Positions 10,438 to 46,519 of a DNA stretch of 64,000 bases are shown one piece after another. The stretch spans positions 12,694-76,693 of the forward strand of contig MGVS01000097.1 of NCBI GenBank assembly GCA_001800605.1, written 5' to 3'. The position numbers and the translations under genes are program-made. The notes below the pieces were generated by a model that was not told where the DNA came from, did no database searches, and saw only the letters and a list, made by a program, of their open reading frames with translations. Positions within the stretch are counted from its first letter, which is position 1; every line of letters begins with the position of its first letter. Source of the stretch: Elusimicrobia bacterium RIFOXYD2_FULL_34_15 (GTDB taxonomy: Bacteria > Elusimicrobiota > UBA8919).

Positions 10438-10519
10438 AATATTTTAACTTCAATTCAAAATTAAAAATGTAAAATGTAAAATTTAGGAATAAAACCTTAA
10501 TTTATATTTTTTCCGCTAC

Positions 10520-10592
10520 TAAACCATCAGCGGATCCGCCCCCGCCACTGATACTCTGGCGGGCAAGAACGACTTAGTGGCGGAAACTTTTA
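10520..10592. repeat. GC-rich palindromic element (ccgccactgatactctggcgg ... cttagtggcgg)
   Basis: Same family as 690-712, 11488-11537, 47074-47106 and 61004-61050. Confidence 0.7.
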
Positions 10593-10622
10593 ATTTTAAA
10601 TTTTAAATTGTCTTTATTAGAT

Positions 10623-11414: not shown

Positions 11415-11487
11415 AAGCACCCCATAAATTAAACAAGTTAAAATTGAAAGTGAAAAACTAAAAATGAATGTAAAAACCTTCATTTTT

Positions 11488-11537
11488 CCGCCACTGTGAC
11501 TTTGGCGGATCCGCCTACAACTTAGTGGCAGAAACTT
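11488..11537. repeat. GC-rich palindromic element (ccgccactgtgactttggcgg ... cttagtggcag)
   Basis: Family member, see 10520-10592. Confidence 0.7.
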
Positions 11538-11556
11538 TTAATTTGCTTTTTTGCCT

Positions 11557-12876
11557 CTAACTGGGTTTATCTACTAAAACAAAGGTAAATTCAGCTTCTG
11601 TTGCTAATTTGCCTTCAATATACGCACAACCTTTTATCATACCTGTTGATTGTTTTGCTTTAAGAACTTCTATTTCCAGATAAAGTGTATCACCGGGTAA
11701 AACAGGTTTTCTGAATTTTACATTATTTATTGACATAAAATAAGCTAATTTTTTATTTTTCAAATCAGATTTTGAGAGAAGTAATACACAAGAGGTTTGC
11801 GCTAATGCTTCTACAATTAATACTCCCGGCATAATTGGTCTTTCAGGAAAATGCCCCTGAAAAAATGGTTCATCGGCAGAAACACTTTTTATTCCAACTG
11901 CTTTTTTTAATTCTTCAACTATTATTACCTTATCCAAAAAAAGAAAAGGGTATCTATGGGGAATTGTCGCCTTGATTTCGTTTATGTCTACTATTCTGCC
12001 TTCCGGAATCTGCCATGAAGATTTATTTTGAGTCAATTTTTGTCCGGTTGCTTCTGCATAAATCTTTTTTGCAAATTCAGTATTATTTTTATGCCCGCAT
12101 TTTATAGCTGTTATATCCATTTTTAGTGAAGAACCGAGTAATGAAGTGTCTCCGATTAAATCAAGTATTTTATGACGGATAAATTCGTCTTCATACCTTA
12201 ACTGAGTATGAATTTTTTTAGCACCTATAACGATTGCATTTTCTAATGTTCCGCCTTTTGCAAGTCCTTTGCTTTTTAATGCTTCGATTTCATGATCAAA
12301 ACAATAAGTTCTTGCAGATGCAATTTCTTTTTCAAATGTCTCAGGTGTTATATCTATGCTTAAAAACTGGTTTTTTAATAATGGATGATTATACATTATT
12401 GTACAATCAATATGGAATCTATCCGAAGGAGTTGCTGTTATTAAGACATCGCCATTTTTATAAACAATAGGCGAAGAAATAGTTAATCCTTGTTTTTTCT
12501 CTGCAGATAGCTCTGTAATTCCGGCTTTTTTTACCAGTTCTACAAAATGCTTTGCACTTCCGTCGCCGATGGGAGGTTCATTGGAATTCATTTCAATTAT
12601 TAAATTATCAATTCCATATACAGCTAAAGTAGCCAATAAATGTTCTATTGTATGTATAGATGTTTTTTCGTCCAAGCCTACAGTAGTTCCTCGAATTGTA
12701 GATATTACATTTGAAATATCCGCTTTTACTTGGGGACTTCCGGGCAAATCGGTTCTTATAAAAACTATACCTGTATTTTCCTGTGCAGGTTTTAATTTTA
12801 TTGTTACATTATTCCCCGTATGCAGTCCGATACCTGAATATGGTACTTCTTTTAAAATAGTTTTTTGTTTTTCCAT
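11557..12876 (-). CDS. lpxC-fabZ: Fused UDP-3-O-acyl-GlcNAc deacetylase / 3-hydroxyacyl-ACP dehydratase (LpxC-FabZ)
   Basis: 439 aa. LpxC N-terminal half and a FabZ hot-dog C-terminal half (HFPERPIMPGVLIVEALAQ). Confidence 0.9.
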   Translation of the reverse strand: MEKQKTILKEVPYSGIGLHTGNNVTIKLKPAQENTGIVFIRTDLPGSPQVKADISNVISTIRGTTVGLDEKTSIHTIEHLLATLAVYGIDNLIIEMNSNEPPIGDGSAKHFVELVKKAGITELSAEKKQGLTISSPIVYKNGDVLITATPSDRFHIDCTIMYNHPLLKNQFLSIDITPETFEKEIASARTYCFDHEIEALKSKGLAKGGTLENAIVIGAKKIHTQLRYEDEFIRHKILDLIGDTSLLGSSLKMDITAIKCGHKNNTEFAKKIYAEATGQKLTQNKSSWQIPEGRIVDINEIKATIPHRYPFLFLDKVIIVEELKKAVGIKSVSADEPFFQGHFPERPIMPGVLIVEALAQTSCVLLLSKSDLKNKKLAYFMSINNVKFRKPVLPGDTLYLEIEVLKAKQSTGMIKGCAYIEGKLATEAEFTFVLVDKPS

Positions 12877-14912: not shown

Positions 14913-17180
14913 TTAAAATATCTGGCCCATTGTGAAATAGAACTGGGATAATTGCTCGCCGGGTCTATGGTTTAATCCGTATCCCCAATCGATTCTTATC
15001 GGAAGTACCGGCATAGGCCTTAATCTTATACCAAAGCCAACCCCTGTTTTTATTTGTCTTTCTTCCGGACCGATTTTTAAACTTAGATCGTCATCGCCTC
15101 GCCACGAGCCACCCATATCAGCAAAAAGCACAGCTGATAGAACTGAACGGTTATTTTCTTCAATTATAGGGAATTTATATTCTAAATTTGATATAAAAAT
15201 TATCTTTCCTTTTTCCGGAGGCCCTATTTCGCCAAAATCATAGCCGCGAACCGTATCCGCACCACCCAAAATAAATCTTTCATATATCGGTACATCCTTT
15301 GAAGGTGGAAACTCTTTAACAAAAGAAATACGCGTATTTAAACCTATGATAAATTTCCAGAATGTCGGTATAAATTTTGACAATGATAAGTTCGGTTTAT
15401 AAAAATGTGTATTACCGCCGAAAGGTCCGCCAGCAACTTTTACTGATAGCGAATGCCTGGAGCCGCGGGTTGTATCAAAAACATTGTCTCTGGTATCACG
15501 CGTAATTGCAGATGTTAGAGAAGATGCTATATCTTCAGTACTTTGAATTTGATTTACTAAACCTATATCTATATTAAAAACCCTTACTTCCTCATAAGCA
15601 TATGTAAAATTAAGAGACAGTATATCAGAAAGCGGTTTGCCGATTCTAATGTCTCCGCCTCTTCTTCGCTCCTGGTAAGCATTTATATCTGTTCCGAATG
15701 TTCTCCATGCTGTTGTATTAAAAATATCTACACCAAAAAGCAGTTTTTTGCCAAAAAGATACGGTTCTGTAAAACCTATCTCGTAGTTTTGCTTCCTGGC
15801 ACCAAATTCATACGTTAAATTTAATCTTTGGCCTTTTCCAAAAAGGTTGGTCTCTGTAACCTGAACCGTTCCGACTACCTTATCAACCGAAGAATAACCC
15901 GCACCCAAAGAAACCAGACCTGTTTTATCTTCCTCAACCTCAATTGCCAAATCTGCTTTATCAACTTCTTTTGTTTCCTCAATATCAACCTTCACATCTT
16001 TAAAAAATCCAAGATTATATAGACGTTCCTGGCTTCTTCTAATCCTGCCAACTGCAAAAACATCACCTTGCTTTACAAGAAGTTCGCGTTTTATTACATA
16101 ATCTTTTGTTTTTGTATTGCCATCAATATAAATCTTGTCTATATAAACAACACCATTTTCAATTATATTGATTTTTATATCGACGATTCCGGTCTCATCA
16201 TTTTTAATAATTTCCGGTTCGAATTTTGAACGTATATAACCTCTATCGGCATATAACGATTTTAAATTTCCTTCACTCTCGTCATATTTTGATTGGCTAT
16301 AAACTACATTTTGCTTGAAATTAAAAACTTTTATTAATTGGCTTTCTGTAAATATTGTATTTCCTGTAAAACTAACTTTACCATTTACATATTTTCTTCC
16401 TTCGTCAATTATCACCCTTATGTACATTTTTGTTCGAGATTCATCATACGTAATTCCCGGCTCAAGTATTTTTATATTGATATGGCCGTTATCTTTGTAA
16501 AATGCTTCAACTTTTTTCATGTCATCTTTGAAGGTTTCTTCTTTATAAACTTTTTTCTTCTTAGTTGTAAAGAGTTTTTTAATTTTCTTGTATTTAAAAC
16601 TTTTTATACCTTCTATATTTACGTCACCAATAAGAATTTTATTACCTTCCGCAATTGAAAAAGTAACATTAGCAAAACCAGTGGATTCATCTGTTGTAGA
16701 ATAATCTTCTACCCTTACATCCGCATAACCTTTGTCTTTATAAAGAGTGTTTATTTTTTCTATATCATCTTTAATTTTTCTTATATCATAACCTTCTTTT
16801 TCTTTGGTGGAAATTTCTGATCTTAATTTTCTGCTTGAATATTCTTTATTTCCCTTAAAGTCAATTTTCTTAACAATAAGTTTTTCCTGAACTATAAATA
16901 TTACTTTTACTCCGTCTTTATAATCAGAAACATCGGCAGCAACATCCGAAAAATATCCGAGCTTGTAAATAGCAGAGATATCTTCATCCACAAGTTTCTG
17001 GTCAAAATCTTCCCCGGTATCAATTTTTATTACGTTTTTTACAACGCGTTGTTTTACGTTCTTTAAACCCTGTACTTCGATAGCACGAATTTCTTTTTTT
17101 TGAGTTGAATTTTCAGCAAATAACGTAATACTAAGTAAGAAAACAAAAATGATTATAAATAAATTTTTAAATTTTTTCAT
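14913..17180 (-). CDS. bamA: Outer membrane protein assembly factor BamA
   Basis: 755 aa. Signal peptide, POTRA repeats, and a C-terminal beta-barrel ending ...YFTMGQIF. Confidence 0.9.
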   Translation of the reverse strand: MKKFKNLFIIIFVFLLSITLFAENSTQKKEIRAIEVQGLKNVKQRVVKNVIKIDTGEDFDQKLVDEDISAIYKLGYFSDVAADVSDYKDGVKVIFIVQEKLIVKKIDFKGNKEYSSRKLRSEISTKEKEGYDIRKIKDDIEKINTLYKDKGYADVRVEDYSTTDESTGFANVTFSIAEGNKILIGDVNIEGIKSFKYKKIKKLFTTKKKKVYKEETFKDDMKKVEAFYKDNGHINIKILEPGITYDESRTKMYIRVIIDEGRKYVNGKVSFTGNTIFTESQLIKVFNFKQNVVYSQSKYDESEGNLKSLYADRGYIRSKFEPEIIKNDETGIVDIKINIIENGVVYIDKIYIDGNTKTKDYVIKRELLVKQGDVFAVGRIRRSQERLYNLGFFKDVKVDIEETKEVDKADLAIEVEEDKTGLVSLGAGYSSVDKVVGTVQVTETNLFGKGQRLNLTYEFGARKQNYEIGFTEPYLFGKKLLFGVDIFNTTAWRTFGTDINAYQERRRGGDIRIGKPLSDILSLNFTYAYEEVRVFNIDIGLVNQIQSTEDIASSLTSAITRDTRDNVFDTTRGSRHSLSVKVAGGPFGGNTHFYKPNLSLSKFIPTFWKFIIGLNTRISFVKEFPPSKDVPIYERFILGGADTVRGYDFGEIGPPEKGKIIFISNLEYKFPIIEENNRSVLSAVLFADMGGSWRGDDDLSLKIGPEERQIKTGVGFGIRLRPMPVLPIRIDWGYGLNHRPGEQLSQFYFTMGQIF

Positions 17181-17213
17181 AGTTTTATAATTATAATAAT
17201 TTCATCATAAAAG

Positions 17214-20200
17214 TCAAGGTTTTTCTTCCTGGTTTGACTCTCGGGGAGCTTCCTTAGATGGTTCAGTTCCAAATCTCCAGAATTTTTCAAAGAAGAAGCT
17301 TCTGTTTCTTTGGCCATCTAACTCTTGAGTAGTTTTAAACATCACGCCATTTTTTAGACGGTAAGAAAGTTCGATATCATGCCTCAGTGAAAGTTTGTTT
17401 TCAAATTCATCGAATTTAACGCCATATCCTGCCGAAAAACCGCTTGAAAAAGATTTACCGAATTGAAGTTTTGTACCTTTGTACAAATCCAGTATTGTAG
17501 GTTGTGTACCTCCTGCTAAAGGTGTAGCCGGTGCCTCCCTTTTTATCGCAAATTTATCTATAAAACCGGTTCTTTTAAAGAGCGATTTGACAAATGGTGT
17601 TGTTAAAAGCGTATCTACCGCTTTTGACACCTCTTCAGCTGAAAACGGTTGTTTCTGTTTTGTATCCGCTAATCCCAATGCCGCCTGTGCGGCTGACTGT
17701 TCTTCTTCCTGAGGATTGGTCTTTGAAGAAAATCTCGGTTTGACATTTTCCAGGGGACCTCTATCTAGAGTCAAAACAATAGTATCAGGTATATATTCTG
17801 TAACCATCTGGTGTGTTGCTAGATCCTCCCTTCTTTTTTCTATTTCCGTTTCTGATTCGGCTATTCCTGATAGATACAAATTACTATTTTCCGCTTCAAA
17901 AATAGCTTCTCTAATCGTAAAACTTCTACCGATATAATTGATATCTCCTCTTGTTGATTCAACTTTTCCTGTAACAAATGGTGATGATCCTTTACCGTGA
18001 AGAAGGAGCTCTCCTTTAGTTTCAGCAGAAGCAAAATCGTTTTCATACCAGCAATTCTTGCCGGATATAATTTTAAAATTCCAGCTTGCATTATTAAGAA
18101 AATCCCAGCTGCCTTCACTGCTATCTACACCAGGATATGTAAATCTTGCATCACTCAGCTTCATATAACCGCTGATATTCCAAGAATCAGAAGTTCCTGC
18201 AAATGTTATATCACAACCAACTTTTGCCCTGGAAGGATTAGAGAAAGAAGCATCCGGCACACCCGGGATAATCTTTCCGATACCGCCGGATTTTATTTGT
18301 AAATCATTAATCACTACTCCAATATTTCCGTTCGGGGTTACTACATGTAAATCAAAATCGCCGATATTAAAACCATCAACTACGGAAAGGTAACCGCTTA
18401 TTACGATAGGTTCTTTATCAATCAAAGCACTAACTTCATTCAATTCTATCCTATTACCTGAAAATTTTAATTTACATTTAACATCATTTAACTTTTTAAA
18501 AATATCTTTCATAACAACTTCTTCGGCAGTTGCATTTAATTCGCCGGAAATATCGGGTTTCTTTATATTTCCTCTTACATCTATAGACATTGAAAATTTT
18601 CCCGTTGCTTTTTTTACTACTTTAGAAAAGGAAGTTAATATCGACATATCCCCATCTTTAATTTTTAAAGATATATCTATCGGCCTATCGGATAGCTTTT
18701 TCTTCATTTCAGCGGTCAGCGGCAGAGGTAAAGTACCCTCTCCTTCGACCGAATAAACATTTTTCTGCGATATTTTTAAATGTTTCAATTCAAGAATACT
18801 TTCATTTATTTCAAAAAATATGGATGCTGTATCAAAATCGATATTTTCTAATTCGCCGTTAGAAGAATTTACCATGCAGTTTAGAATCGGATTTTCTCTG
18901 GTACCCGAAATACTTATATTAAAATTCGTGTTGCCTGCTGCTTCGATTTTTGCACCTAAAATGTTAAGCAAATTGCCAAGCGGAATGTTATTACCTTCGG
19001 ACACAATATCAAAAGTATCATTTTTTAATAAACCATTAACAAAAAATATTTTTTTTCCTACCTCAAATATCGAAACATTATCAATTTTTAATTCTGAAAG
19101 TTTTGAAATATCCATACGGCCTACAACTTGTGTTGTTTTTCCCATTTCGGGTATAAAACTTAGAATACCCCCAGAATATTCAACGTGATATCTCCTGTCT
19201 TTTAACTGATATTGGTTAACCCATAAACCAGAAGTTGAGATATCTGCTTTTATTGAATTATCCCAACTGCCTTCTATACTAAGACCACCAAAAAGTATCA
19301 CACCAGGTATTTTAACATTTCTTAATTCCATAACTATTTTAAAAATTGATTCTTTAGAAATATTTATATTTGATTCAGGAAGAATTTTAATCTGGGTTTC
19401 ATCCCACTTAATATTACCCTTTGAAAAAACTACCCGTTTATTCTTATATGTGAATCTGCCGTCCAAAGAATCCACTAATTTTTCTTTTATATGAATATTT
19501 GTTCCGGAAAAACTAACTAAAATCTCCGGATTTTTTAAAGGACCTGTTATGTTAAATTCTACATCTTTAAATTTTCCTGATACCGGAAAAGTAGCTCCGT
19601 ATAATGTATATATTGAATCCGTTTTTAAATCGTCTGCAGATATATTTAATCCTGTAAATTCTCCTTTTCCCAAATCTGCAGTACCTGAAATTGCTATTAC
19701 AGACTTATCCATAATTAATTTTGTATTTTCCACTTTTAGTATCTTTTTATTTACTGATATTTTCCCTGTTCCATGAGAATCCAAGCCATAAATATTGCCT
19801 TCGTATCTATAATTTATCGAAATCAAAGGATTATTTATATCCCCCCTGACTGACATTTCACCTATTAACCTTCCGTCTATTTTTTTATAAATCTCTTCTG
19901 CATTTATTAAAAATTTTATATTTGAAGAAACATATCTTGAATCCAAAAAATAACTAAAATTACCCCTGATTTTGTCTCCCCATATTATTTCTTTAAGATC
20001 TATTTTTTTACCGTCATAAGTTCCTGTTGTTAAAAACTTTTCCCTGACATTATCAACCGATAAATTAGGCGAAGTAATCTTATAATTTATTGTGTTTTCC
20101 GTTTTTTTCCCGTACAAGCTCAAATCTCCGTTTACTATTTTCTTTTGAATTTCCAAATCATTAAGCTTCAATGATAGATTGAAATTATTTTTTTCAATTT

Positions 20201-31000: not shown

Positions 31001-32884
31001 TCAATCCCAAAGATACAGATTTATGCCGCCGATAAATGTTCTGCCCGGCAACGGAAAATTTTCTCTTGATACATATCTTTTATTTAAGATGTTTTCAACA
31101 GAAAAAAACAATTCCGACTGTAATACCGGCCTGCTTATTCTGAAATTTAAAAGTGTATATCCAGGCAATTCATGCTTTACAAAATCTTCCCATTTCTGTT
31201 TATGTGTATATTCAACCCCTAATTTTGTTTTCAGCTTTAAGGGTGCCAAATAATTTAATGTATAATTTATTCGATGTCTTGGAGTGTATTGTAAGATTTT
31301 ATATTTACCGGAACTCTTCCCCATACTTTCCAAATAATTATAATTTAAGTTATATTTCAAATTTTTTGTAACTTCATTTTCTAATTCAAATTCAATTCCT
31401 CTTGAAAATGCCTTACCCACATTTACAGGTCTCCATGTATCAATGGTTGGATCAGCCGAAATATTTTGCCATTCAATCAAATCCTTAATATCGTTATAAA
31501 AAAATGTTATTTTCGGGACAAAAACATCACTCAATTTGTATTCTGCTCCGACATCAATACCTATAGATTTTTCCGGTTTTAAATCCTCATTTCCCATGGT
31601 ATTCCCTTCATTTCCGAAAATAGTTGCAGGCCAAGAAGCAAATGGCGAAAACAAATCTTCAAAAGTTGGTGCTCTGAACGCTGTACCAATATTAGAGGAT
31701 AATTTTAATTTCTTTGTTAAATTATAAACAGCTAAAATTCTTGGATTTGTTGAACCCTTATATGATGAATTATAATCATATCTTATTCCTGGTGTAAGTG
31801 ACAATTCTTTAATATCAAAAGTCTTTTGAATAAACATTGCAGAATTATCCCGGGTTTTATTAACTGTTTCCTCTTTATTATCCGTTCTCTTAAAATTTTC
31901 ATTTCTAAAATCAACCCCGGCCACAATATCAGAAAATTCTATTTGCGAGTTAAATCCAGTATTTTCGGGTCTGGACGTAGAGTTTGTAAAAGCATCCGGA
32001 TCTTTATAGTTCTTTTTTTGATAATCCCAATAAATATTTGTTTTTAGTTGCTTATCTTTTAATAATATTCTGTGTTCTAACTGAGCATAATATTTGTTGT
32101 CACTTTGTTTAGCGTTAGGTGTTGATGCAGCTCTTTCCAAATGTTTATCATACTGGCTTATAGGGGTGGAATTTGTACCCGGCACTCCGAGCTTGGAATC
32201 AAAAACACCATTACTCAAGAACAAATCTCCATATTTTTCAAAATCATAACCGATTTTAGAAGTTAGATCTGTTAAAGCATAATTCGAATTTTCCCTGAAA
32301 CCGGTAGCTAAGCTCCTGTTACCTGATAAAAATATATTTACCTTTCCCGGTGTTGCAGACATAGTAAAATCATAAATTCTCGTATGATAATTTTCTATCC
32401 TTGCACCAATTTCCGTTTTAGGTTCTGAAACAGCAGATTTTCGTGTAATTATATTTACTACACCGCCAAGTGCATTTGCGCCATAAAGTGCTGAGGATGG
32501 ACCCCTTAATACCTCAATTTTTTCAATATTTTCAGTCGGTATCTGGGAAAGGTCAGCAAGACCAAGTGAATTATCATTTACAGGACGCCCATCAACCATA
32601 ACCAGCGTTTGTTTTGAAGAATCCCCGCCGCCTCTTATCCGTATACTTGACTCGGAACCAACTGACCCTCTTTTCGAAACTTCTGTTATTCCGCTTTTAT
32701 TTTCTAGAATTTCCCCAACACTCTTGCTATCGGCATTTTTTATTTCGTCTTCTGTAACAACATCTATGTTCGTTGCCGATTTTTCTATCGGCACCTCCTT
32801 TTTTAAACCAATATATATTGTGGTTTCCTCAGCAAAAAGTATTCCCATCCCGCAAAACAACAAAGTTAAAAAAAATTTTTTCAT
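31001..32884 (-). CDS. btuB: TonB-dependent outer membrane receptor (BtuB-like corrinoid receptor)
   Basis: 627 aa. Signal peptide, plug domain and a 22-strand barrel. Sits downstream of a cobalamin riboswitch next to cob genes. Confidence 0.8.
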   Translation of the reverse strand: MKKFFLTLLFCGMGILFAEETTIYIGLKKEVPIEKSATNIDVVTEDEIKNADSKSVGEILENKSGITEVSKRGSVGSESSIRIRGGGDSSKQTLVMVDGRPVNDNSLGLADLSQIPTENIEKIEVLRGPSSALYGANALGGVVNIITRKSAVSEPKTEIGARIENYHTRIYDFTMSATPGKVNIFLSGNRSLATGFRENSNYALTDLTSKIGYDFEKYGDLFLSNGVFDSKLGVPGTNSTPISQYDKHLERAASTPNAKQSDNKYYAQLEHRILLKDKQLKTNIYWDYQKKNYKDPDAFTNSTSRPENTGFNSQIEFSDIVAGVDFRNENFKRTDNKEETVNKTRDNSAMFIQKTFDIKELSLTPGIRYDYNSSYKGSTNPRILAVYNLTKKLKLSSNIGTAFRAPTFEDLFSPFASWPATIFGNEGNTMGNEDLKPEKSIGIDVGAEYKLSDVFVPKITFFYNDIKDLIEWQNISADPTIDTWRPVNVGKAFSRGIEFELENEVTKNLKYNLNYNYLESMGKSSGKYKILQYTPRHRINYTLNYLAPLKLKTKLGVEYTHKQKWEDFVKHELPGYTLLNFRISRPVLQSELFFSVENILNKRYVSRENFPLPGRTFIGGINLYLWD

Positions 32885-32891
32885 TTTTTCT

Positions 32892-33048
32892 CCCGTAGGC
32901 CCTGCCTACCGTCAGGCAGGCTCGCCATAGCTTCACTTTATGAAGCGAAGGCGGGCATTATCAAAAATTTGTTCCATTGTTTCATTATTCTATTGTTCTG
33001 AAAGTAGCCGCAGAGCCTGACTGCCGACAGGCAGGCGATAGCTCTGCT
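32892..33048. repeat. GC-rich palindromic elements (cctgcctaccgtcaggcagg family) inside the btuB leader
   Basis: CCTGCC-N8-GGCAGG inverted repeats at 32901-32920 and 33018-33040. Related to 38225-38242, 42683-42700, 48088-48108 and 49642-49662. Confidence 0.65.
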
Positions 33049-33174
33049 AACATTTGGCAAAGCTTACGCTTTGCTGCTACATATTTCAGAACTCCCTCAT
33101 TTCTATGAACTACGAACTCTTTATTTGCATTTTCCACCTCCCTCTCTCTCGAAGAGACCCGTTTATACGGGACT

Positions 33175-33345
33175 AATAACAAATAGGTTTCCTGACTTAG
33201 GTTTTTTGGAATTTCACCTTCCCAGTTCGCCATAGCGACCAGTGGCATTTAAAATTCCCTGCTCCAAATCATTGGAGCATCACCATTACAGTAGCGGGAC
33301 TGTTCCCGAATTTTATCCTTAGACTCCGCTCAGGATAAGCACGGG
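33175..33345 (-). promoter_or_regulatory. Cobalamin (AdoCbl) riboswitch aptamer
   Basis: Minus strand reads ...AAttcGGGAAcaGTCCCGCtACTGTaAtgg...GCCACTGGtcgctatggcgaaCTGGGAAGGTGAAATTCC...AAGTCAGGAaACCTatt. These are the conserved cobalamin-riboswitch core blocks (the CCCGC.ACTGT block, GCCACTG, GGGAAGG, and a B12 box at 33183-33198). Confidence 0.72.
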
Positions 33346-33370
33346 ATTCTCTATTTTGTTAATTTTTATA

Positions 33371-34096
33371 TCACTTTATATTTAACAATATTAACACTAA
33401 CACTTCTGAAATTTCGTTTATCGCACCTAAAGTATCACCGGTAATACCGTTTATTTTCTTTTTAACATATTTTGTAAATATATATGAGAATACTGAAATA
33501 AACAGAAATATTATAATACCTTTAAATTGAAAAACAAAGGTAGTTATTAAAAATGTAATTATTCCTGATATAACAAAATCTTTTTTTGAAATATTACTTA
33601 AAAAGTAATTTCCCAAACCGGTTTCCTTTGCCGGTTTTGATATTCCCATTGATAAAACCATAGCCCATCTTCCAAGAACCGGAAACAAAATTAAAGATGA
33701 ATTGAACAAAGCAGTATCAATATTATTTAATAAAACAAATTTTGAAAGTATTACCAATGCAATACCAATAACTCCCATAGTACCGATATGACTATCATTC
33801 ATAACTTCTAGTATTTCATCTTTATTTTTTCCGGCATATAAACCGTCAAGCGAATCTGCTAGTCCGTCTAAATGCAAACCACCGTTAATTATTATTGTTA
33901 CGGTAATAATCAATAAATCAACTACTATTTTATAAAACACAAATGAGCAACCAAATTTAATTAGAACAAGAATTCCGCCGATAAAAAGTCCGACAACCGG
34001 GAAAAAAGGCAATATATGTTTTATCCCCTGCCTGTATTTTTTTGGCACAGGTATTATTGTCAGAAAACTAATAGCTGAAAATAAATAATTAATCAT
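33371..34096 (-). CDS. cobS: Adenosylcobinamide-GDP ribazoletransferase (cobalamin synthase)
   Basis: 241 aa polytopic membrane protein. Begins MINYLFSAISFLTIIPVP with the conserved DGLAD...GDxxG motif. Confidence 0.88.
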   Translation of the reverse strand: MINYLFSAISFLTIIPVPKKYRQGIKHILPFFPVVGLFIGGILVLIKFGCSFVFYKIVVDLLIITVTIIINGGLHLDGLADSLDGLYAGKNKDEILEVMNDSHIGTMGVIGIALVILSKFVLLNNIDTALFNSSLILFPVLGRWAMVLSMGISKPAKETGLGNYFLSNISKKDFVISGIITFLITTFVFQFKGIIIFLFISVFSYIFTKYVKKKINGITGDTLGAINEISEVLVLILLNIK

Positions 34097-34139: not shown

Positions 34140-35207
34140 TTACTGTTTTGTACTTACTCCTGCACTCTCAAATGTCGCCATCTCATCTAAAATTTTAAGC
34201 GAAACATCTATTAAATTCATTGCTAATGCTGAACCCGTTCCTTCACCTAACCGCATACCTAAATTTAAAAGCGGTTTTAAATTTAAATATTCAAGCATAA
34301 TTCTATGCCCTGGCTCTTTTGAACTATGCGCTGCAATCCAATACTGTTTAGCTAATGGTGAAATTTTGTCAGCTATCAAAGCGGCTGCTCCGGATATAAA
34401 GCCATCGATAACAACAGGTATTTTGTAGCTTGCACCTGCAATCATTATACCTGCTAAACCGCCGATTTCATATCCGCCTATCTTTGATAAAATATCGATT
34501 CCGTCATTAAAATCCGGTTTATTTTTTTCTATACCTCTTTTTATAACATCAATTTTATTTTGTAATGCTTTATCATCAATACCTGTTCCCCTGCCGGTTA
34601 CTTTTTCAGGTTCAATATTACAAATCACCGATGCTATGGCTGCAGATGGCGTTGTATTTCCTATGCCCATATCACCCGTTCCAATCAAATCTATTCCGCC
34701 ATTTTTAACTTCTTCTTCAACAAGTTCAATACCTATCTCAATTGACTTAATCGCTTCTTCTCTTGTCATTGCAGGTCCTTTAGTAAAATTCTTCGTCCCA
34801 AAACCAATTTTTTTAACTTTTAACTTTTCACTTTTAACTTGCAGTTCTTCTCCTACTCCCATATCCACAACAACTACTTTTGCTCCAACATGCCTTGCAA
34901 GAACATTTACTCCAGCACCGCCGTTTATAAAATTGTAAACCATCTGGGGTGTTACTTCTTTTGGATATGCGGAAACCCCTTCCTCAACAACGCCGTGGTC
35001 CCCTGCAAGCGTAAAAATAGTTTTATTTTTCAATGAGGGCTTATCTTTTCCTATAATTGCAACTATTTGTTTTGCAACATCTTCGAGTTGTCCCAAAGAA
35101 CCAAGCGGTTTAGTTAAACTATCAAGCCGTTTTTGAGTTTTATCTAAAAGTACTTTATCTAGCGGTTTAGTATTCCTAATAATTTCTTCTATTTTCTTAC
35201 TTGTCAT
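34140..35207 (-). CDS. cobT: Nicotinate-nucleotide--dimethylbenzimidazole phosphoribosyltransferase
   Basis: 355 aa. CobT fold with GEGTG and GGAA motifs. Confidence 0.88.
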   Translation of the reverse strand: MTSKKIEEIIRNTKPLDKVLLDKTQKRLDSLTKPLGSLGQLEDVAKQIVAIIGKDKPSLKNKTIFTLAGDHGVVEEGVSAYPKEVTPQMVYNFINGGAGVNVLARHVGAKVVVVDMGVGEELQVKSEKLKVKKIGFGTKNFTKGPAMTREEAIKSIEIGIELVEEEVKNGGIDLIGTGDMGIGNTTPSAAIASVICNIEPEKVTGRGTGIDDKALQNKIDVIKRGIEKNKPDFNDGIDILSKIGGYEIGGLAGIMIAGASYKIPVVIDGFISGAAALIADKISPLAKQYWIAAHSSKEPGHRIMLEYLNLKPLLNLGMRLGEGTGSALAMNLIDVSLKILDEMATFESAGVSTKQ

Positions 35208-35881
35208 TTTTCCTCCATATAATATTCTTTTAAGTCAAGAAACCAATGTTTCCAAAAACCGTCTTTAAATATTTTTTCTGTCTTAGTGATTTTAATTTTC
35301 TTTTTAAAAATTGGTCCGTCATAAACAAAAGTATGAAATTCCCCGTTTTCACCGCAGGGACAAATTTTCTTTTCAATTAAAAACCTTACTGCGTCTTTAT
35401 CAAATTCCCTGCCAATAAAAGTGTCATCAAATAAATCCGCTTTTGCACTTACGATAATTGCTTTAAATCCCAAATCGATAAATTCATTTGCAATATTTTC
35501 AGGTTTTAAATTCCATAGTGGTTCCAAAGGTTTTATTCCTATTTCACCGCATACCCTATCGACCCAATTAGTATGTTCCAATAAATATATATCACCAAAA
35601 ACTATACCATTAATATCTTCTTTTTTCAGGTTCAGGACAGCAGATTTAAATTCTTTTTCGTATTCTGCCATATCTGCACTTACTTCATTTTGACAAATAG
35701 GAATCCCTATCGCATCCGACTGAGCTTTCATTAGTTTTGAATCTATTCCGTGAAAACATCCTCTTTTTGTCTCTTCCGAAATAAAGTTTAATAAGCATGA
35801 TATTTCATGACTTTGTTGCATAGCCTTAAAACATGCAAGACATGAATCTTTTCCACCTGACCAGGACGAAATAATTTTCAT
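35204..35881 (-). CDS. PP-loop ATP pyrophosphatase of the Dph6 / MJ0570 (ATP_bind_4) family embedded in the corrinoid operon
   Basis: 225 aa. SWSGGKDS PP-loop at the N-terminus. 4-nt overlaps with both cobT and cobU. Confidence 0.75.
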   Translation of the reverse strand: MKIISSWSGGKDSCLACFKAMQQSHEISCLLNFISEETKRGCFHGIDSKLMKAQSDAIGIPICQNEVSADMAEYEKEFKSAVLNLKKEDINGIVFGDIYLLEHTNWVDRVCGEIGIKPLEPLWNLKPENIANEFIDLGFKAIIVSAKADLFDDTFIGREFDKDAVRFLIEKKICPCGENGEFHTFVYDGPIFKKKIKITKTEKIFKDGFWKHWFLDLKEYYMEEK

Positions 35882-36402
35882 TTTAGTCTCCTTTTTATAC
35901 CTGAAATAAAAAAGTAAAATTCGTTTGAATCCTTAGCAAGTATCTGATTTACCCTGCCGATTATATCCCTGAAATCTCTTCCCAATTTATATGGCGGCAC
36001 AACCCCCATCCCCACTTCATTTGAAACTAAAATAACTTTTCCTTTAATTTTCCGCAGTTTTTTAATTAGATTTTTAATATTTTCTATTATCTTATCTTCA
36101 GTATATTTCTTAAACATCCAATTTGAAACTAAGAAAGTTACACAATCAACAATAACACAATCCGCTTTTTCAAACGATTTTAAATGTTTTATAATATCCT
36201 CTGTCTCTTCAATCGTTTTCCAATGTTTTGGCCTTGATTCTTTATGAACTAAAATTCTCTTATTCATTTCTCTATCCGTTATCTTACCGGCAGTTGCAAT
36301 AAAAACAACTTCTTTGCATTTTTCGGCAAGTTCCAAAGCAAAAGTACTCTTCCCTGACCTCACCCCGCCCGATATAAATATAATTTTTCCCATTTTACCC
36401 AT
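35878..36402 (-). CDS. cobU: Adenosylcobinamide kinase / adenosylcobinamide-phosphate guanylyltransferase
   Basis: About 171 aa. P-loop GGVRSGKS. The first ATG overlaps the repeat, so the likely start is the second Met at 36393. Confidence 0.85.
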   Translation of the reverse strand: MGKMGKIIFISGGVRSGKSTFALELAEKCKEVVFIATAGKITDREMNKRILVHKESRPKHWKTIEETEDIIKHLKSFEKADCVIVDCVTFLVSNWMFKKYTEDKIIENIKNLIKKLRKIKGKVILVSNEVGMGVVPPYKLGRDFRDIIGRVNQILAKDSNEFYFFISGIKRRLK

Positions 36403-36440
36403 TACCCAGCCTGTCCCGATGCATCGGGATTACCCGTTAC
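36385..36440. repeat. RPE-like palindromic element, second copy (ttacccattACCCAGCCTGTCCCGAtgcaTCGGGATTACcCGTTAC)
   Basis: See 22150-22215 and 49218-49274. Confidence 0.8.
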
Positions 36441-37224
36441 TTGTTTTATCCCATTGCGGCACCGATAAAATATGCGGTTTACCCGAAACAGGGTTTTTAT
36501 TTACAACAACAACCGTTTTATAAACATATTCTATATTCTGATAAGTCATAACCTCTTCAGGATTGCCCTCTTTATAAATAGCACCGTTTCTCAAAAGTAA
36601 AATCCTGTCGCAATATTCGCTGGCAAGATTCAAATCATGCATAACTATAATAACAGTAACTTTTTTTTCTATATTTAACCTTTTAATAATATCCAAAATT
36701 TCTATCTGATGGCTTATATCCAAATGTGAAGTCGGTTCATCAAGCAATATAAACTTTGATTGCTGGCAAAGTGCACGCGCAATTACAACCCTCTGTTTTT
36801 CTCCGGAAGAAAGTTCATTTATATATCTTTCGGAAAGTCCTTCAATTTCCAGAAGCTTCAAACTTTCTTCAGCAATTTTAAAACCCTCTTCTTCTTCACT
36901 TAAAAATTGCTTCTGGTACGGATATCTTCCCATCAGAACAATTTCTTTTACAGTAAACGCAAATGTCGTATCAACCTCTTCCGGAACAAAAGAAATATTT
37001 CTAGCCCTTTCTTTGGGTTTCATTTTATAAATATCTTTTTCATCCAGTAAAACTTCACCATTTTGAGGATGATAAAATCCGGAAATTGCTCTTAATAACG
37101 TTGATTTTCCGCTTCCGTTCGGACCTATAATACCAACAAATTCATAGTCGGAAACAGTTAAATTTACATCATTAACAGCAACAAAATTATCGTATTTAAC
37201 TACCAAATCATTAACTTTTAACAT
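36430..37224 (-). CDS. btuD: ABC transporter ATP-binding protein, FecE/BtuD type
   Basis: 264 aa. Walker A GPNGSGKST and LSSGEKQRV signature. The C-terminus reads into the repeat element. Confidence 0.85.
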   Translation of the reverse strand: MLKVNDLVVKYDNFVAVNDVNLTVSDYEFVGIIGPNGSGKSTLLRAISGFYHPQNGEVLLDEKDIYKMKPKERARNISFVPEEVDTTFAFTVKEIVLMGRYPYQKQFLSEEEEGFKIAEESLKLLEIEGLSERYINELSSGEKQRVVIARALCQQSKFILLDEPTSHLDISHQIEILDIIKRLNIEKKVTVIIVMHDLNLASEYCDRILLLRNGAIYKEGNPEEVMTYQNIEYVYKTVVVVNKNPVSGKPHILSVPQWDKTSNG

Positions 37225-38215
37225 TTTTTTTCAATAATAAATAAATAAAAAACGGGACTCCGGTTAGAGCTGTTACGACGCCAACAGGCACTTCAAAAGG
37301 CGAAAAAAGAGTTCTCGATACCGTATCAGCTGTAACTAAAAAACAGCTCCCTAACAAAAAAGATACAACAAGAAATCTTTTATAATTTGCTCCGACAAAT
37401 ACTCTTGCTATATGAGGAATAATCAAGCCCATAAAACCAATAACACCGCTTACTGCGACAATGCTTCCTATTATTATCGAAGAAATAAAAAAAAGAATCC
37501 ATTTTATCTTTTCTACATTTACACCCAGATGATATGCCGTCTCTTCTCCTTGTGAAATGATATTTAATTCGTCTGAATAAAGAAAACTCAAAACAAATCC
37601 GATTAAAACTAAAATCCCTGAAACAATAATAAGTTTTATATTGTTTTCCTGTAAAGAACCCATCAAAAAAAATATTATGTCCTGTGAATCCTGGTAAAAA
37701 ATAGACATCAACAAAAGTACAATCGCATTTGTAAATATATTAACAATAACTCCGGAAAGTATCAAAACCTCTACTTTTGTCTGGCCATGGACTTTTCCGA
37801 TTGAGTATGCAACAATCGTTGATATCGCACTACCGATAATTGCAAGAGGATATATCGCCGAATACGGTAATTTTAAAACAATACCTGTTGCAACACCGAC
37901 TGCAGCACCGCCTGAAGCTCCGAGAATATACGGGTCAGCAAGCGGGTTTTTAGTAATACCCTGGAGTATAGCTCCTGACAAGGCCAGCCCGCAACCCACA
38001 ATCATCCCAAGTATAATTCTTGGCAACCTAATCTTGTAAATAATATCGTAATTTATACCATCAGTTGAACCGAAAAATAAGGAAACAAAAGATATTCCTA
38101 CAAGCAAAATAACTAAAACTAAAACAACTTTTATATATCTTTTATTTGCAACCATAAATTTATTTTTTAGCGTTGAAAAGTCATTACGCTCTTGATTACG
38201 GGGATTTAATGACAT
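37211..38215 (-). CDS. btuC: FecCD-family ABC permease (BtuC-like)
   Basis: 334 aa, about 9 TM helices. FecCD family. Confidence 0.85.
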   Translation of the reverse strand: MSLNPRNQERNDFSTLKNKFMVANKRYIKVVLVLVILLVGISFVSLFFGSTDGINYDIIYKIRLPRIILGMIVGCGLALSGAILQGITKNPLADPYILGASGGAAVGVATGIVLKLPYSAIYPLAIIGSAISTIVAYSIGKVHGQTKVEVLILSGVIVNIFTNAIVLLLMSIFYQDSQDIIFFLMGSLQENNIKLIIVSGILVLIGFVLSFLYSDELNIISQGEETAYHLGVNVEKIKWILFFISSIIIGSIVAVSGVIGFMGLIIPHIARVFVGANYKRFLVVSFLLGSCFLVTADTVSRTLFSPFEVPVGVVTALTGVPFFIYLLLKKNVKS

Positions 38216-38224: not shown

Positions 38225-38275
38225 TGCCTACCGTCAGGCAGGTCTGTGTAATCTCTTTTCTTAATCTGTGTAATC
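38225..38275. repeat. cctgcctaccgtcaggcagg hairpin followed by two copies of (A/G)TCTGTGTAATC, 22 bp apart, immediately upstream of btuC
   Basis: 12-mers at 38242-38253 and 38264-38275. Confidence 0.8.
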
Positions 38276-39095
38276 AGTGATTTTTGGATTTTTCAAAAAT
38301 CACTTTATACAAAATATCCATACCTTCAATAATTCGCGGTCCGGGCCTTAAAAATATATCAGGATTGATATTTGCAATTATTCTATTATTTTTTACAGCA
38401 TCAACCGATTCCCATCCCCGCCTTAAAACATTATCCTTATCCTGCATACTTAGAACAACAATCCATTCCGGGTTCTTATTAATTATTGATTCTGCGGTTA
38501 TCTGACAATACGGCAAGGGTAAATCTTTAAAAACATTCTCACAACCGACAATATCAAAAATATCATTTATAAAAGTATCTTTGTTCACTGTCATAAATGG
38601 TTTCGAATAAATCTCAATAAACACCCTTGGTTTCTTTTTGATTTTTTCTGTTTTACTTTTATAATAATTAATTTTACCTTTAATTTTATTAACTAATGAT
38701 TCAGCTTCTTTATTTCTTCCTGTAACATCTCCGATTTTTTTTATAGAAACTATAATCCCTTTAATCGTTTTTGGGTCAACACAAAATATATTAAGTCCTA
38801 GACCTTTCAGTTTTTGATTTAATTTATTTTGCTCCTGATCTGTTGTAAAAATAATATCCGGCTTTAGTGAAAATATCTTTTCAATATCCGGATTACTAAA
38901 TGAACCCACCTTTTCTTTGTTTTTTACTTCAGGCGGATAATTGCAATAAGTTGTAACCGCTACAATATTTTTATCCAGGCCTAATGCAAATAAAATCTCG
39001 GTTGTTGCAGGAGTAAGGGAAATTATTCTCATTTCTTTTTCCGCAAAAAGAAAATCCCCATATAAAAATAAACAAAGTATTATTAAATTCTTCAT
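38274..39095 (-). CDS. btuF: Periplasmic corrinoid/siderophore-type substrate-binding protein (BtuF-like)
   Basis: The class III SBP fold begins at MKNLIILCLFLYGDFLFA, a signal peptide. The track start at 39185 adds 30 residues that are repeat-derived, so the start is moved to 39095. Confidence 0.8.
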   Translation of the reverse strand: MKNLIILCLFLYGDFLFAEKEMRIISLTPATTEILFALGLDKNIVAVTTYCNYPPEVKNKEKVGSFSNPDIEKIFSLKPDIIFTTDQEQNKLNQKLKGLGLNIFCVDPKTIKGIIVSIKKIGDVTGRNKEAESLVNKIKGKINYYKSKTEKIKKKPRVFIEIYSKPFMTVNKDTFINDIFDIVGCENVFKDLPLPYCQITAESIINKNPEWIVVLSMQDKDNVLRRGWESVDAVKNNRIIANINPDIFLRPGPRIIEGMDILYKVIFEKSKNH

Positions 39096-39252
39096 ATTAA
39101 AAACGTAATGTTGAGTAAAGCAACTTAATTCGAGATTCTTCTCCAGATAAATCGGGATCAGAATGACGTCCAAACAAGATGTCATGCTGAGCTATAGTGA
39201 AGCATCTCGACTTATATTCATTATTATAAATATCAATTCTTCTACTTTTTAA

Positions 39253-39271: not shown

Positions 39272-39784
39272 TTAATATTCGATGCCTTTTCTACATTTAA
39301 CACCTTTTCTATACGGGTGTTTGATTTCTTTTATCTCGGAAACTAAATCTGCTATCTTTATTAATCCTTTTGGAGCATTACGTCCTGTTATAACTACTTC
39401 CATGCTTTTTGGTCTTTTTTCCAATAACGAAATTATCTTTTTAATATCAATGAATTTACCGCAGAGTGCGATATTAAATTCATCCAAAACTAATAAATTA
39501 TAGCTTTTTTCTTTAAATATTTTTTCAATTAATTCTACCGCTTTTTCACATTCCGATTTAACAAATTCTTGCTTTACATTTTTATAAAAACACGGATGCT
39601 TTGGTGTAAAAGAATACATTTTTAAATTCTTTTGTTTTTTTAAAATATTTTGTTCTCCATAATATGCTTTATCTTTAAAAAACTGAACTAAGCAAACTTT
39701 CATTCCGTGTCCCAATGCTCTTATAACCAAACCTACAGCACAGGTTGTCTTGCCTTTTCCGTTTCCGGTATAAATTTCAATCAT
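39272..39784 (-). CDS. cobO: Cob(I)yrinic acid a,c-diamide adenosyltransferase (CobO/BtuR/CobA type)
   Basis: 170 aa. Begins MIEIYTGNGKGKTTCAVGLVIRALGHG, the P-loop typical of CobA/BtuR. Confidence 0.85.
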   Translation of the reverse strand: MIEIYTGNGKGKTTCAVGLVIRALGHGMKVCLVQFFKDKAYYGEQNILKKQKNLKMYSFTPKHPCFYKNVKQEFVKSECEKAVELIEKIFKEKSYNLLVLDEFNIALCGKFIDIKKIISLLEKRPKSMEVVITGRNAPKGLIKIADLVSEIKEIKHPYRKGVKCRKGIEY

Positions 39785-39960: not shown

Positions 39961-40135
39961 CAAAAATTAAAAAAACCTAGCTCTGAGAAGAGTTAGGCTA
40001 ACTAAACTTTCTCCCCTCGGAGTTTTCGTAACTGATAGACCGGGCTTTACCGTTGCGGGGCAGCTTCCGAATTCCCATTTATACTGAGCAACGTCGAACG
40101 TATCAATGGGTCACGGAATTCCTTCAATTACAAAT
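39961..40135 (-). ncRNA. Candidate structured leader RNA, possibly a divergent cobalamin-type riboswitch, ending in an intrinsic terminator, upstream of the cobO-btuFCD-cobU-cobT-cobS operon
   Basis: Minus strand reads ttgaaGGaattCCgtg...tatAAatGGGAAttcGGaaGctgCCCCGCaACgGTaAAGcccgg... This partly resembles the GGGAA...CCCGC.ACTGTAA core of cobalamin riboswitches. It ends in CCTAaCTCTtctcAGAGcTAGG plus TTTTTTTAATTTTTT (39961-39996). No clear B12 box. Confidence 0.35.
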
Positions 40136-40176
40136 TATTTTAAAAACGATTAAAACTGATTAAAAGAACTGATTAT

Positions 40177-44723: not shown

Positions 44724-45557
44724 CTATTCTTCTTTAGCCAAGTTATCGTTTATTGTACTTCCATCTTTTTTCTTCCATTCAGCAAGTCCATTTGCGTTTC
44801 TACCCATTACGATAGCTGCTGCCGTTGATGGACTGGAAAAAAGATAATCTTGTGTAAAAATCCAATCTTTTATAATACCTTCAGATGTTAGTTTATTCCT
44901 TTTATTTTTAAAACTAATTGTTATAGAAGGAACTTCTGTAGTAGCAATTTTAGAATTCTTGAGAACTACGAATCCCTCGGAAGTAATCATTCCTTCTGCA
45001 TGTGCCCCGCGAGTAGCTGAAATATAATATCGATCTTGATTTGAATGATTACTCTCAATAAGTTTTTCAAATATTTTATATCCCATTGTACCAACAAGTA
45101 ATTGTAAATTTTTTGAAAATTCTAACATTACAGCTTGATCAGCCTCAGAAATTGCAGGTTCAGTAGGAGTATTATCATTAATTATTTTATATCTTTTAGC
45201 ATCTTTTGCTTGAATATAAAGTCTATATTCAAGAAATTTTACATGTGCTTTATTTAGATTCTCATCTTTGCTAATAAAAGCTAATGCTTCTGACCAAAAA
45301 TCTTTTTCTTGATGTTGGAAAATTCTTTTTAATACTTCTTCAGATTCACCAATATAAACACATTCATTATCATTTTCATCACGACCTATTAAAAAATAAA
45401 TACCTGCTTTTTTCAATTCAGACCTATCTGATGCATTTTTTAATTTATTTTTTGGAATTCTATATCCTTTTCCAGTCCAATTTAATATCTCACAAGCAAT
45501 AATACCATCTGGTGTACCATCAATTAAAAATAGAGATATTGCTTTTCCACTTGCCAT
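44724..45557 (-). CDS. GIY-YIG nuclease-domain protein with a DUF4357-like C-terminal region
   Basis: ...AGIYFLIGRDE...VYIGESEEVLKRIFQH is GIY-YIG-like. AGGAGG lies 7 nt before the ATG at 45557. The track start at 45617 reads through the palindromic element ccaaccccgggttgg. Confidence 0.7.
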   Translation of the reverse strand: MASGKAISLFLIDGTPDGIIACEILNWTGKGYRIPKNKLKNASDRSELKKAGIYFLIGRDENDNECVYIGESEEVLKRIFQHQEKDFWSEALAFISKDENLNKAHVKFLEYRLYIQAKDAKRYKIINDNTPTEPAISEADQAVMLEFSKNLQLLVGTMGYKIFEKLIESNHSNQDRYYISATRGAHAEGMITSEGFVVLKNSKIATTEVPSITISFKNKRNKLTSEGIIKDWIFTQDYLFSSPSTAAAIVMGRNANGLAEWKKKDGSTINDNLAKEE

Positions 45558-45584
45558 TGTAATTCCTCCTAATATCAACTTCCG

Positions 45585-45685
45585 CCAAGTTCCAACCCCG
45601 GGTTGGAACTTTGGCAACTTGTCTGCCGCCTATGGCGAGCCTAGCCCCTTTGGGGCGGGAGCCTATTAAGCAGTCGAAGGATTAT
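45585..45685. repeat. Palindrome ccaaccccgggttgg plus direct repeat copy 2 (ctgccgcctatggcgagcctagcccctttggggcgggagcc...cagtcgaaggatt, 45623-45685)
   Basis: See 40283-40340. Confidence 0.75.
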
Positions 45686-46519
45686 TCACTTAAGAAGTAT
45701 TCTTGCTATTTCATTCCAATCTGATACGTAAGTAACATTTGGAATTACTTTTTCTTCCTTGCCTATTTTTATAACTTTCATATTGTTTGCAAGATATGCT
45801 TCTGTATCGGTGTCTCTATCGCCGATACCAATTGATATATTATCCCATATTTGTTTTAATTTTTTAATTCTTTCTGTTTTATATTTTGCTGAACTTAAAG
45901 GATAATCGCCTAAATCCCAAAAAAATACAGGGACATCCGGAAATTTATTCATTTTTAACCAATTTTCCGTTTTCCAGAGAAATACCTCTTCTCTTTTTGT
46001 TACAAAAACAATATCGTATTTTTGGGAAAGTTTTTGCAGAACTTCCGGAGCGTTTTTAAGAGGTAAAACATCTTTATTCGGCTTAGTCACGTATCCGAAC
46101 CAGCTTACATCAGCTACAGTATGGTCAATATCAACAATGATAGCAGGTCTCTTTTTATAAGAACAAAATACTTTTGCTGATATTGAGTTTGAAATATAAC
46201 CGGAAGCCGTTGATAGTTTTACATTTAGTTCAAATATACCCGGTTTATTGATTGTATACGGTAAAAAGGCAAAACCCTCATTATTAGTTATAGATTCTCC
46301 TATGCTTTTGTTATTAATATAAAAAAAAATCTTCTCATTTTTAATATCCGGTCTTAAAAATAAAATATTCTTTTCTAATTTTGCTCTGAAAATAACTTTT
46401 TCACCGGGAACGGTTATTAAATCATATGCAACCAATCTTGCCGGTTTTTGTGTTTCTGCAAAAAGAATATTAAAACTGCACAAAATCAATATACTGAATA
46501 ATATATTTTTTTTACTCAT
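45686..46519 (-). CDS. Secreted HAD-superfamily (App1/LNS2-like, DxDxT) phosphatase
   Basis: 277 aa. Signal peptide. IVDIDHTV is the DxDxT motif. GDRDTD is the distal Asp motif. Confidence 0.55.
   Translation of the reverse strand: MSKKNILFSILILCSFNILFAETQKPARLVAYDLITVPGEKVIFRAKLEKNILFLRPDIKNEKIFFYINNKSIGESITNNEGFAFLPYTINKPGIFELNVKLSTASGYISNSISAKVFCSYKKRPAIIVDIDHTVADVSWFGYVTKPNKDVLPLKNAPEVLQKLSQKYDIVFVTKREEVFLWKTENWLKMNKFPDVPVFFWDLGDYPLSSAKYKTERIKKLKQIWDNISIGIGDRDTDTEAYLANNMKVIKIGKEEKVIPNVTYVSDWNEIARILLK

Follow-up and report, generated by a model that had tools for sequence, protein, structure and literature searches.

Within a 64,000-nt stretch of contig MGVS01000097.1 from Elusimicrobia bacterium RIFOXYD2_FULL_34_15 (positions 12,694 to 76,693; hereafter the window), we examined a gene, termed X, which lies in the operon cobO-btuFCD-cobU-X-cobT-cobS. 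Next after the operon come a cobalamin riboswitch and the gene for a TonB-dependent receptor, and all these genes are on the minus strand. Coordinates given without a locus number are window positions. Gene X (35204-35881, minus strand; 225 amino acids, ATG start) very probably encodes a member of the DUF71-B12 subgroup of PP-loop ATP pyrophosphatases and acts in the cobamide salvage pathway. As the most likely mechanism, this enzyme would adenylate a carboxylate of a salvaged corrinoid, with amide formation to follow. The assignment of the X reaction as amide formation on the corrinoid, drawn by analogy, is a tentative one. The reading combines an intact ATP pyrophosphatase site, a conserved co-expression with genes that serve to import corrinoids, adenosylate them and assemble the nucleotide loop, and a divergence from the diphthine-ammonia ligase Dph6 at the substrate site. 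The mostly bacterial DUF71-B12 branch probably diverged from archaeal and eukaryotic Dph6 and was recruited to cobamide salvage.

The X protein is identical (100%) to a hypothetical protein of the metagenome-assembled genome “Elusimicrobia bacterium RIFOXYD2_FULL_34_15”. In a Pfam scan it was matched end to end by PF01902 (Diphthami_syn_2; E 8.1e-57, residues 1-219), the family formerly named ATP_bind_4/DUF71. This was the sole Pfam match, and no homology to the CbiZ family was found. The PP-loop SGGKDS (residues 8-13; 35843-35860, minus strand), read from the sequence, aligns to S12-D16 of the Pyrococcus furiosus protein PF0828, at positions that are 92-100% conserved among 79 homologues. The DUF71-B12 signature is present as GENGEFHT (residues 177-184; 35330-35353, minus strand), likewise read from the sequence and mapped to PF0828. 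His183 of this motif occupies the aligned position of Glu188 in Dph6 (PF0828), and the same position is histidine in 78 of the 79 aligned homologues. The pattern GExGE[F/Y]H was also found in nearly all of 132 aligned representatives of 50%-identity clusters, drawn from a library of 1.84 billion proteins. Translational coupling of X with its neighbours is evident on both sides. The tetranucleotide ATGA at 35878-35881 comprises the cobU stop and the X start, with AGGAG a few bases upstream, and ATGA at 35204-35207 comprises the X stop and the cobT start, with GGAGG upstream.

The family DUF71/COG2102 has been split into Dph6, present in archaea and eukaryotes, and the mainly bacterial subgroup DUF71-B12 (de Crécy-Lagard et al., Biol Direct 2012; PMC3541065). 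According to the same study, B12 transporter genes such as btuCDF adjoin 75 of 102 DUF71-B12 genes, cbiB adjoins 18 of 102, and the signature ENGE[F/Y]H replaces the motif EGG[E/D]xE188 of Dph6; P. furiosus PF0295 and C. perfringens YP_695745 are among its named members. A review of 2016 carries the entry “function unknown, B12 salvage” for this subgroup. The sequence and context features of DUF71-B12 were found in X, that is, PF01902 together with SGGKDS, the ENGE[F/Y]H motif, and clustering with genes for B12 transport and salvage. X resembles the published members in having btuFCD and salvage genes as neighbours. No CbiZ was found among the 39 window open reading frames (ORFs) scanned with Pfam, which are most, though not all, of those of at least 150 amino acids. 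X differs from the published members in its host, since the 2012 census counted no DUF71 member in Elusimicrobia (0 of 2 genomes; PMC3541065), and in its position between cobU and cobT, each of which overlaps it by an ATGA, with no cbiB nearby; otherwise it is typical.

An initial annotation of the window had described X as a PP-loop ATPase of the Dph6/MJ0570 family, overlapping cobU and cobT by 4 nt each, within an operon for corrinoid uptake, adenosylation and nucleotide-loop assembly with a TonB receptor downstream and no CbiZ. The family match and the SGGKDS loop, the two ATGA overlaps, the family matches of the flanking genes (given below) and the absence of CbiZ from the 39 scanned ORFs agree with this description. 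The role had also been called undescribed, which has to be corrected: the association with B12 salvage has been in print since 2012 under the name DUF71-B12 (PMC3541065), and is listed in the 2016 review. The window is for this reason conceptually nothing new, and X is an added member from a phylum that was unrepresented at the time. The reaction suggested in the initial annotation, (re)amidation or ligation on a scavenged corrinoid, would suit the ancestral chemistry of the family and competes with the published proposal of CbiZ replacement discussed below.

Comparison with Dph6 shows what has been kept and what has changed. X scored 149.2 bits on TIGR03679 (Dph6_archaeal), below the equivalog cutoff of 197.3. 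Among the relatives, structures have been solved only for the Pyrococcus proteins of Dph6 type, PF0828 of P. furiosus (E 2e-28; PDB 3RJZ, 3RK0 and 3RK1) and PH1257 of P. horikoshii (E 5e-26; PDB 2D13); a search for a solved structure of a DUF71-B12 member returned these two Dph6-type proteins and none of the subgroup itself. The AlphaFold2 model of X, built with the 79 homologues, has a mean predicted local distance difference test score (pLDDT) of 97.3. Compared by overall fold, it matched PF0828 and PH1257 with template modelling (TM) scores of 0.82-0.88 at ~ 29% identity, the best PDB match being ATP-bound PF0828 (3rk1). More distant fold matches were the PP-loop enzymes QueC, the ATPPase subunit of GMP synthetase, LarE and MnmA. 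Both sequence and model place an SGGxDS loop in a Rossmann-like alpha/beta domain, as in the PP-loop superfamily. In PF0828 the phosphates of ATP are contacted by S12, G13, G14, K15, D16, H48 and T189, and all of these residues are kept in X (S8, G9, G10, K11, D12, H44 and T184).

In addition to the fold and the ATP-binding residues, X presumably has in common with Dph6 (EC 6.3.1.14) the first half-reaction, an adenylation that releases pyrophosphate (PPi). The differences concern the substrate side. The strictly conserved Dph6 motif EGG[E/D]xE188 reads ENGEFH183 in X, with G184 changed to N179 and the catalytic E188 to H183, and residues of the predicted EF-2 interface are altered as well (S44R, Y45G, Y103E and Q104H). 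Moreover, the host of X is a bacterium and its gene context is cobamide salvage, not translation.

To see how general this context is, we used a profile of the 79 homologues on one genome per GTDB species and examined the best 80 loci, each together with as much as 10 kb of flanking sequence. Neighbour families were obtained by ORF calling and all-against-all clustering, and annotation covered every cluster present in at least 4 loci and some of those present in 2 or 3. The bacterial loci belong to Omnitrophota, Planctomycetota, Atribacterota, Dehalococcoidia and other Chloroflexota, Nitrospirota, Desulfobacterota, Clostridia and Bacteroidota, and the archaeal ones to Bathyarchaeia, ANME and Methanosarcinales, with other groups represented as well. 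Corrinoid import is represented in the 80 loci by BtuD-like proteins (37 loci), BtuF (30), BtuC (25) and TonB-dependent receptors (19). Among the remaining families are CobS (24 loci), CobU (21), CobT (19, and 7 more with an archaeal CobT-like family), histidine phosphatases of CobC type (16), CobO (14), CobD aminotransferase (11), CbiB (9), CobY-like proteins (7), CbiP/CobQ (6) and PgpA-like proteins that are probably CobZ (6).

At least one strictly cobamide-specific gene was present in 50 of the 80 loci. In 37 loci the sequence extends for at least 5 kb in both directions from X, and 26 of these have such a gene within 5 kb. The initial annotation had suggested looking for this co-occurrence in other genomes, and the linkage is indeed conserved across phyla. 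The median gap between X and its neighbour on the same strand is 7 nt upstream and 3 nt downstream, and cobalamin riboswitches were detected at the head of X-containing operons in loci L010, L026 and L063. A chance co-location of X with cobamide genes was considered and rejected, given the neighbourhoods of the 80 loci and the gene fusions described in the following paragraph.

The X domain was found fused to other proteins of the pathway. An X-CobT fusion (P0254; 610 amino acids, 3 cluster members) keeps the His motif and lies in locus L085 (fusion at 10001-11833) in the order receptor-BtuF-[X-CobT]-CobS-CobC. An X-CobQ/CbiP fusion (P0258; 690 amino acids, 3 members), also with the His motif and with a degenerate PP-loop (SSGKDS), belongs to the full salvage operon CobT-CobO-CobU-CobS-CbiB-CobD-BtuFCD-[X-CobQ] of locus L084 (fusion at 10001-12073). 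The fusion to a PduO-type adenosyltransferase (P0229; 369 amino acids), in which the His motif is kept, is represented by a single sequence. In P0236, a DUF71-B12 domain is joined to a cysteine-rich PF04071 domain. A term search of PMC3541065 gave no mention of the fusions to CobT, CobQ/CbiP and PduO. These fusions strengthen the assignment of X to the pathway without fixing its step, because different partners serve different stages.

Some additional observations were made in the same set of sequences. A protein of ~ 320 amino acids resembling the C-terminal part of asparagine synthase (AsnB), with an intact PP-loop SGGLD[ST] and without a glutaminase domain, occurs in 12 of the 80 loci. In 6 of them it is placed directly upstream of X, inside cobamide operons (examples are L074 3489-4475, L028 324-1274, L029 9013-9978 and L033 8845-9801, among others). 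From its sequence, it would be a second ATP-dependent enzyme of amidation type travelling with X, and it recalls the AsnB-Dph6 fusions of the 2012 paper (PMC3541065). A radical SAM/SPASM enzyme is present within cobamide salvage operons in 10 of the 80 loci (e.g. L063 7697-9010, L074, L028, L048, L010 and L052), and passes the cutoff of TIGR04163 (rSAM_cobopep, “peptide-modifying radical SAM enzyme CbpB”; 490 bits vs 375). In two Dehalococcoidales loci (L020 9122-9865 and L034 6887-7624), X follows a module of energy-coupling factor (ECF) type, comprised of a CbiQ-like T component, an ATPase and an S component, and not BtuFCD, which suggests that X is linked there to another kind of vitamin importer. 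Locus L084 also encodes, ~ 4 kb downstream of its X-CobQ fusion, an AP_endonuc_2 (PF01261) protein (16401-17255) from the superfamily of the cobamide phosphodiesterase CbiR. An X-like domain with the motif GEYGE[YF]H[ST] forms the C-terminus of two DUF4116-repeat proteins (P0130, 2455 amino acids, and P0157, 523 amino acids), one of which is in addition weakly matched by kinase, DIT1/PvcA and HAD domains; their context is clearly no cobamide operon.

The mechanism that we propose can be outlined as follows. Corrinoids are imported by BtuFCD and a riboswitch-controlled outer-membrane receptor and adenosylated by CobO, and the nucleotide loop is rebuilt by CobU, CobT and CobS. ATP would be bound through the PP-loop of X, and a carboxyl group of the salvaged corrinoid, or of a salvage intermediate, would be adenylated with release of PPi. 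The acyl-adenylate may then be resolved by a nitrogen nucleophile to give an amide, the nucleophile being either ammonia, in a re-amidation of side chains, or an amino-alcohol linker. As a precedent, Dph6 adenylates a carboxylate and then amidates it with ammonia, and the general target of adenylation by PP-loop enzymes is a carboxylate or carbonyl oxygen. The presence of His183 in place of the catalytic Glu of Dph6 would indicate a substrate other than diphthine, and this residue might be in contact with the corrinoid.

More specifically, X may catalyse a hitherto unrecognised salvage step in which a corrin side chain is adenylated and an amide formed, a proposal made by analogy that we regard as somewhat doubtful. 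Two variants of that step can be envisaged, namely the repair of deamidated scavenged corrinoids, or the action of X as a soluble, CbiB-independent cobinamide synthase feeding CobU. An adenylating and amide-forming step would explain the occurrence of X in operons without CbiB as well as its fusion to CobQ. Such a role, in which cobyric acid might be turned into cobinamide by a soluble enzyme, would fit the CbiB-less operons, where CobU can phosphorylate cobinamide. ATP-dependent formation of amides on corrin carboxylates is carried out by CobQ/CbiP and CbiA/CobB; a fusion to CobQ occurs in one lineage of DUF71-B12, and CbiP is encoded beside X in several loci. In their fold, however, these enzymes are unrelated to X, being built of a CbiA/MinD-like P-loop domain and a GATase_3 domain, and they activate by phosphorylation, not by adenylation.

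Several points weigh against this proposal. The genomic context fits amide formation and other corrinoid-directed reactions alike, and ~ 30% of the well-flanked loci are without a cobamide neighbour. The change from Glu to His may mean that the chemistry, beyond the substrate, is different from that of Dph6. Some of the X salvage loci also encode CobQ/CbiP, and general re-amidation by X would be partly redundant there because CobQ/CbiP amidates four side chains. A strict anti-correlation of DUF71-B12 with the amidohydrolase CbiZ has been reported in bacteria (PMC3541065), and is better explained by remodelling than by re-amidation. Finally, no biochemical or genetic characterisation of any DUF71-B12 member was found in the searchable full-text literature, citing papers included.

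The main alternative is that X replaces CbiZ and starts remodelling by removing an unsuitable lower ligand together with the nucleotide loop. The substrate would be, for example, adenosyl-pseudo-B12, and X would cleave the amide bond cleaved by CbiZ or follow another route, after which CobU, CobT and CobS would rebuild the preferred cobamide. We consider it rather unlikely, on the grounds of both chemistry and gene content. Amide hydrolysis needs no ATP, and we know of no PP-loop enzyme that is an amidohydrolase, so that an ATP pyrophosphatase would be asked to drive the cleavage of an amide. The product of the CbiZ reaction, adenosylcobyric acid, could be reused only via CbiB and CobD. Neither was found among the 39 scanned window ORFs, and of the 22 loci with transport as well as nucleotide-loop genes, 12 are likewise without them, where they may be encoded elsewhere in the genomes. 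Neither CbiZ (adenosylcobinamide/pseudo-B12 amidohydrolase) nor CbiR is described as requiring ATP, whereas X keeps the ATP pyrophosphatase site. They have no Pfam family in common with X, CbiR being described as an AP-endonuclease-2 TIM barrel unrelated to CbiZ.

On the other hand, the alternative was put forward in the 2012 study itself, where replacement of bacterial CbiZ by DUF71-B12 in pseudo-B12 remodelling is proposed, and where the bacterial anti-correlation is reported together with the finding that nearly all genomes encoding CbiB have either DUF71-B12 or CbiZ (PMC3541065). The genomic niche of X, among transporters and nucleotide-loop genes, is that described for CbiZ and CbiR, and X appears in bacteria and archaea as an addition to otherwise complete sets of nucleotide-loop genes, as expected of a remodelling enzyme. 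CbiZ was not among the annotated recurrent neighbour families of the 80 loci, where singleton ORFs were left unscanned and a rare CbiZ is possible. The exchange of Glu188 for His also suggests an altered chemistry. Against a simple replacement, DUF71-B12 and CbiZ coexist in archaea, and Dehalococcoides mccartyi has been reported with cbiZ homologues, its strain CBDB1 having five DUF71 homologues (PMC3541065).

A further alternative would have X act on the lower-ligand branch and not on the corrin ring, for example by modifying or activating the base, alpha-ribazole phosphate or the nicotinate-nucleotide donor of CobT. The position of X directly before cobT in the window and the existence of an X-CobT fusion could be understood in this way, as could the archaeal CobT-like gene that immediately follows X in 7 archaeal loci and the CobC-like histidine phosphatases that adjoin X in Dehalococcoidales. 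We find it improbable, since X is equally often located beside BtuF/BtuC, the TonB-dependent receptor, CbiB or CbiP, and is also fused to two corrin-acting enzymes, CobQ/CbiP and an adenosyltransferase. To our knowledge, no carboxylate-bearing intermediate of the lower-ligand branch needs amidation.

The view that X is a genuine diphthine-ammonia ligase, or a tRNA or protein modification enzyme present in the operon by chance, for which it can be said that Dph6 families are the best profile matches of X and that close homologues carry the database name “diphthine--ammonia ligase”, was rejected as highly improbable on account of the score on TIGR03679 (149 vs 197 bits), the replacement of Glu188 by His, the changes in the EF-2 interface, the recurrent linkage to cobamide genes in many bacterial and archaeal lineages together with the fusions, and the bacterial host, diphthamide and its other biosynthetic genes being absent from bacteria (PMC3541065). 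A diphthamide enzyme was the outcome that the initial annotation had named as contrary to its proposal; the His at the catalytic position, the score below the Dph6 cutoff and the bacterial host speak otherwise. Many bacterial homologues of X are named “diphthine--ammonia ligase” by NCBI and JGI. Because X falls below the Dph6 cutoff and bacteria are without diphthamide, this name is probably wrong, and the DUF71-B12 subgroup has probably been over-annotated in a systematic way.

Microbes share cobamides as nutrients, and their communities are shaped by this; the majority do not make cobamides but take them up from outside and tailor them. DUF71-B12 proteins are widespread in the salvage operons of Elusimicrobia, Omnitrophota, Atribacterota, Dehalococcoidia, Nitrospirota, Bathyarchaeia, methanogens and others. 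Knowledge of the reaction that they catalyse would fill a gap in the map of cobamide salvage and remodelling, and would correct the names given to many database entries. The window offers a compact CbiB-less operon in this respect, and the fusions to CobT, CobQ and PduO are extra evidence that could guide the choice of substrates.

The remaining genes of the operon, all on the minus strand, were assigned by their family matches. The first gene, cobO/btuR, encodes the corrinoid adenosyltransferase (39272-39784; PF02572, E 1e-58), with NCBIfam scores narrowly below the cutoffs (NF004637, 184.8 vs 185; TIGR00708, 167.3 vs 167.75). It is followed by genes for a BtuF-like periplasmic binding protein (38274-39185; PF01497, E 2e-34), a BtuC-like permease (37211-38215; PF01032 FecCD, E 2e-87) and a BtuD-like ABC ATPase (36430-37224; PF00005, E 1e-34). 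Upstream of X, cobU (35878-36402) encodes the adenosylcobinamide kinase/guanylyltransferase (PF02283, E 3e-56; NF004469 equivalog, 195 bits vs a cutoff of 161). Downstream of X are cobT (34140-35207), encoding the lower-ligand phosphoribosyltransferase (TIGR03160, 461 bits vs a cutoff of 319), and cobS (33371-34096), encoding the cobamide synthase (PF02654, E 7.5e-56; TIGR00317, 147 bits vs a cutoff of 110). In addition to CbiZ, the Pfam scan of the 39 ORFs in the 64-kb window gave no match to CbiB, CobD or CbiP.

A cobalamin riboswitch (33166-33393, minus strand; RF00174, 61.6 bits, E 8e-13) is located directly upstream of the gene for the BtuB-like TonB-dependent receptor (31001-32884, minus strand), which has Plug and TonB_dep_Rec_b-barrel domains. 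From this arrangement, the riboswitch is predicted to control the downstream receptor. The leader of cobO, 554 nt long, contains a candidate divergent cobalamin riboswitch (39988-40169, minus strand), with a score of 22 bits (E 0.0016) that is below the RF00174 gathering score of 31.5. The candidate covers the full model and keeps the GCUGC-CCCGCAAC core, and its B12 box is degenerate. A near-consensus promoter-like sequence, TTGACT-16-TATAAT, is found upstream of it at 40265-40238. If the candidate is real, the entire operon from cobO to cobS, X included, would be under corrinoid regulation.

Between the riboswitch and the receptor gene, an ORF of 87 amino acids (32985-33248, minus strand) overlaps the 3' part of the aptamer at 33166-33393. 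It is a called gene in the ENA version of the contig (locus L001), matches no recorded family, and probably does not represent a real gene. Elsewhere in the window, a flavin mononucleotide (FMN) riboswitch (4423-4548, minus strand; 113 bits) precedes a complete riboflavin operon (846-4548, minus strand), comprised of ribD (3274-4326), riboflavin synthase (2594-3220), ribBA (1398-2597) and ribH (846-1349). Two neighbouring paralogues at 44724-45617 and 45686-46519, both on the minus strand, each have a C-terminal DUF4357 domain.

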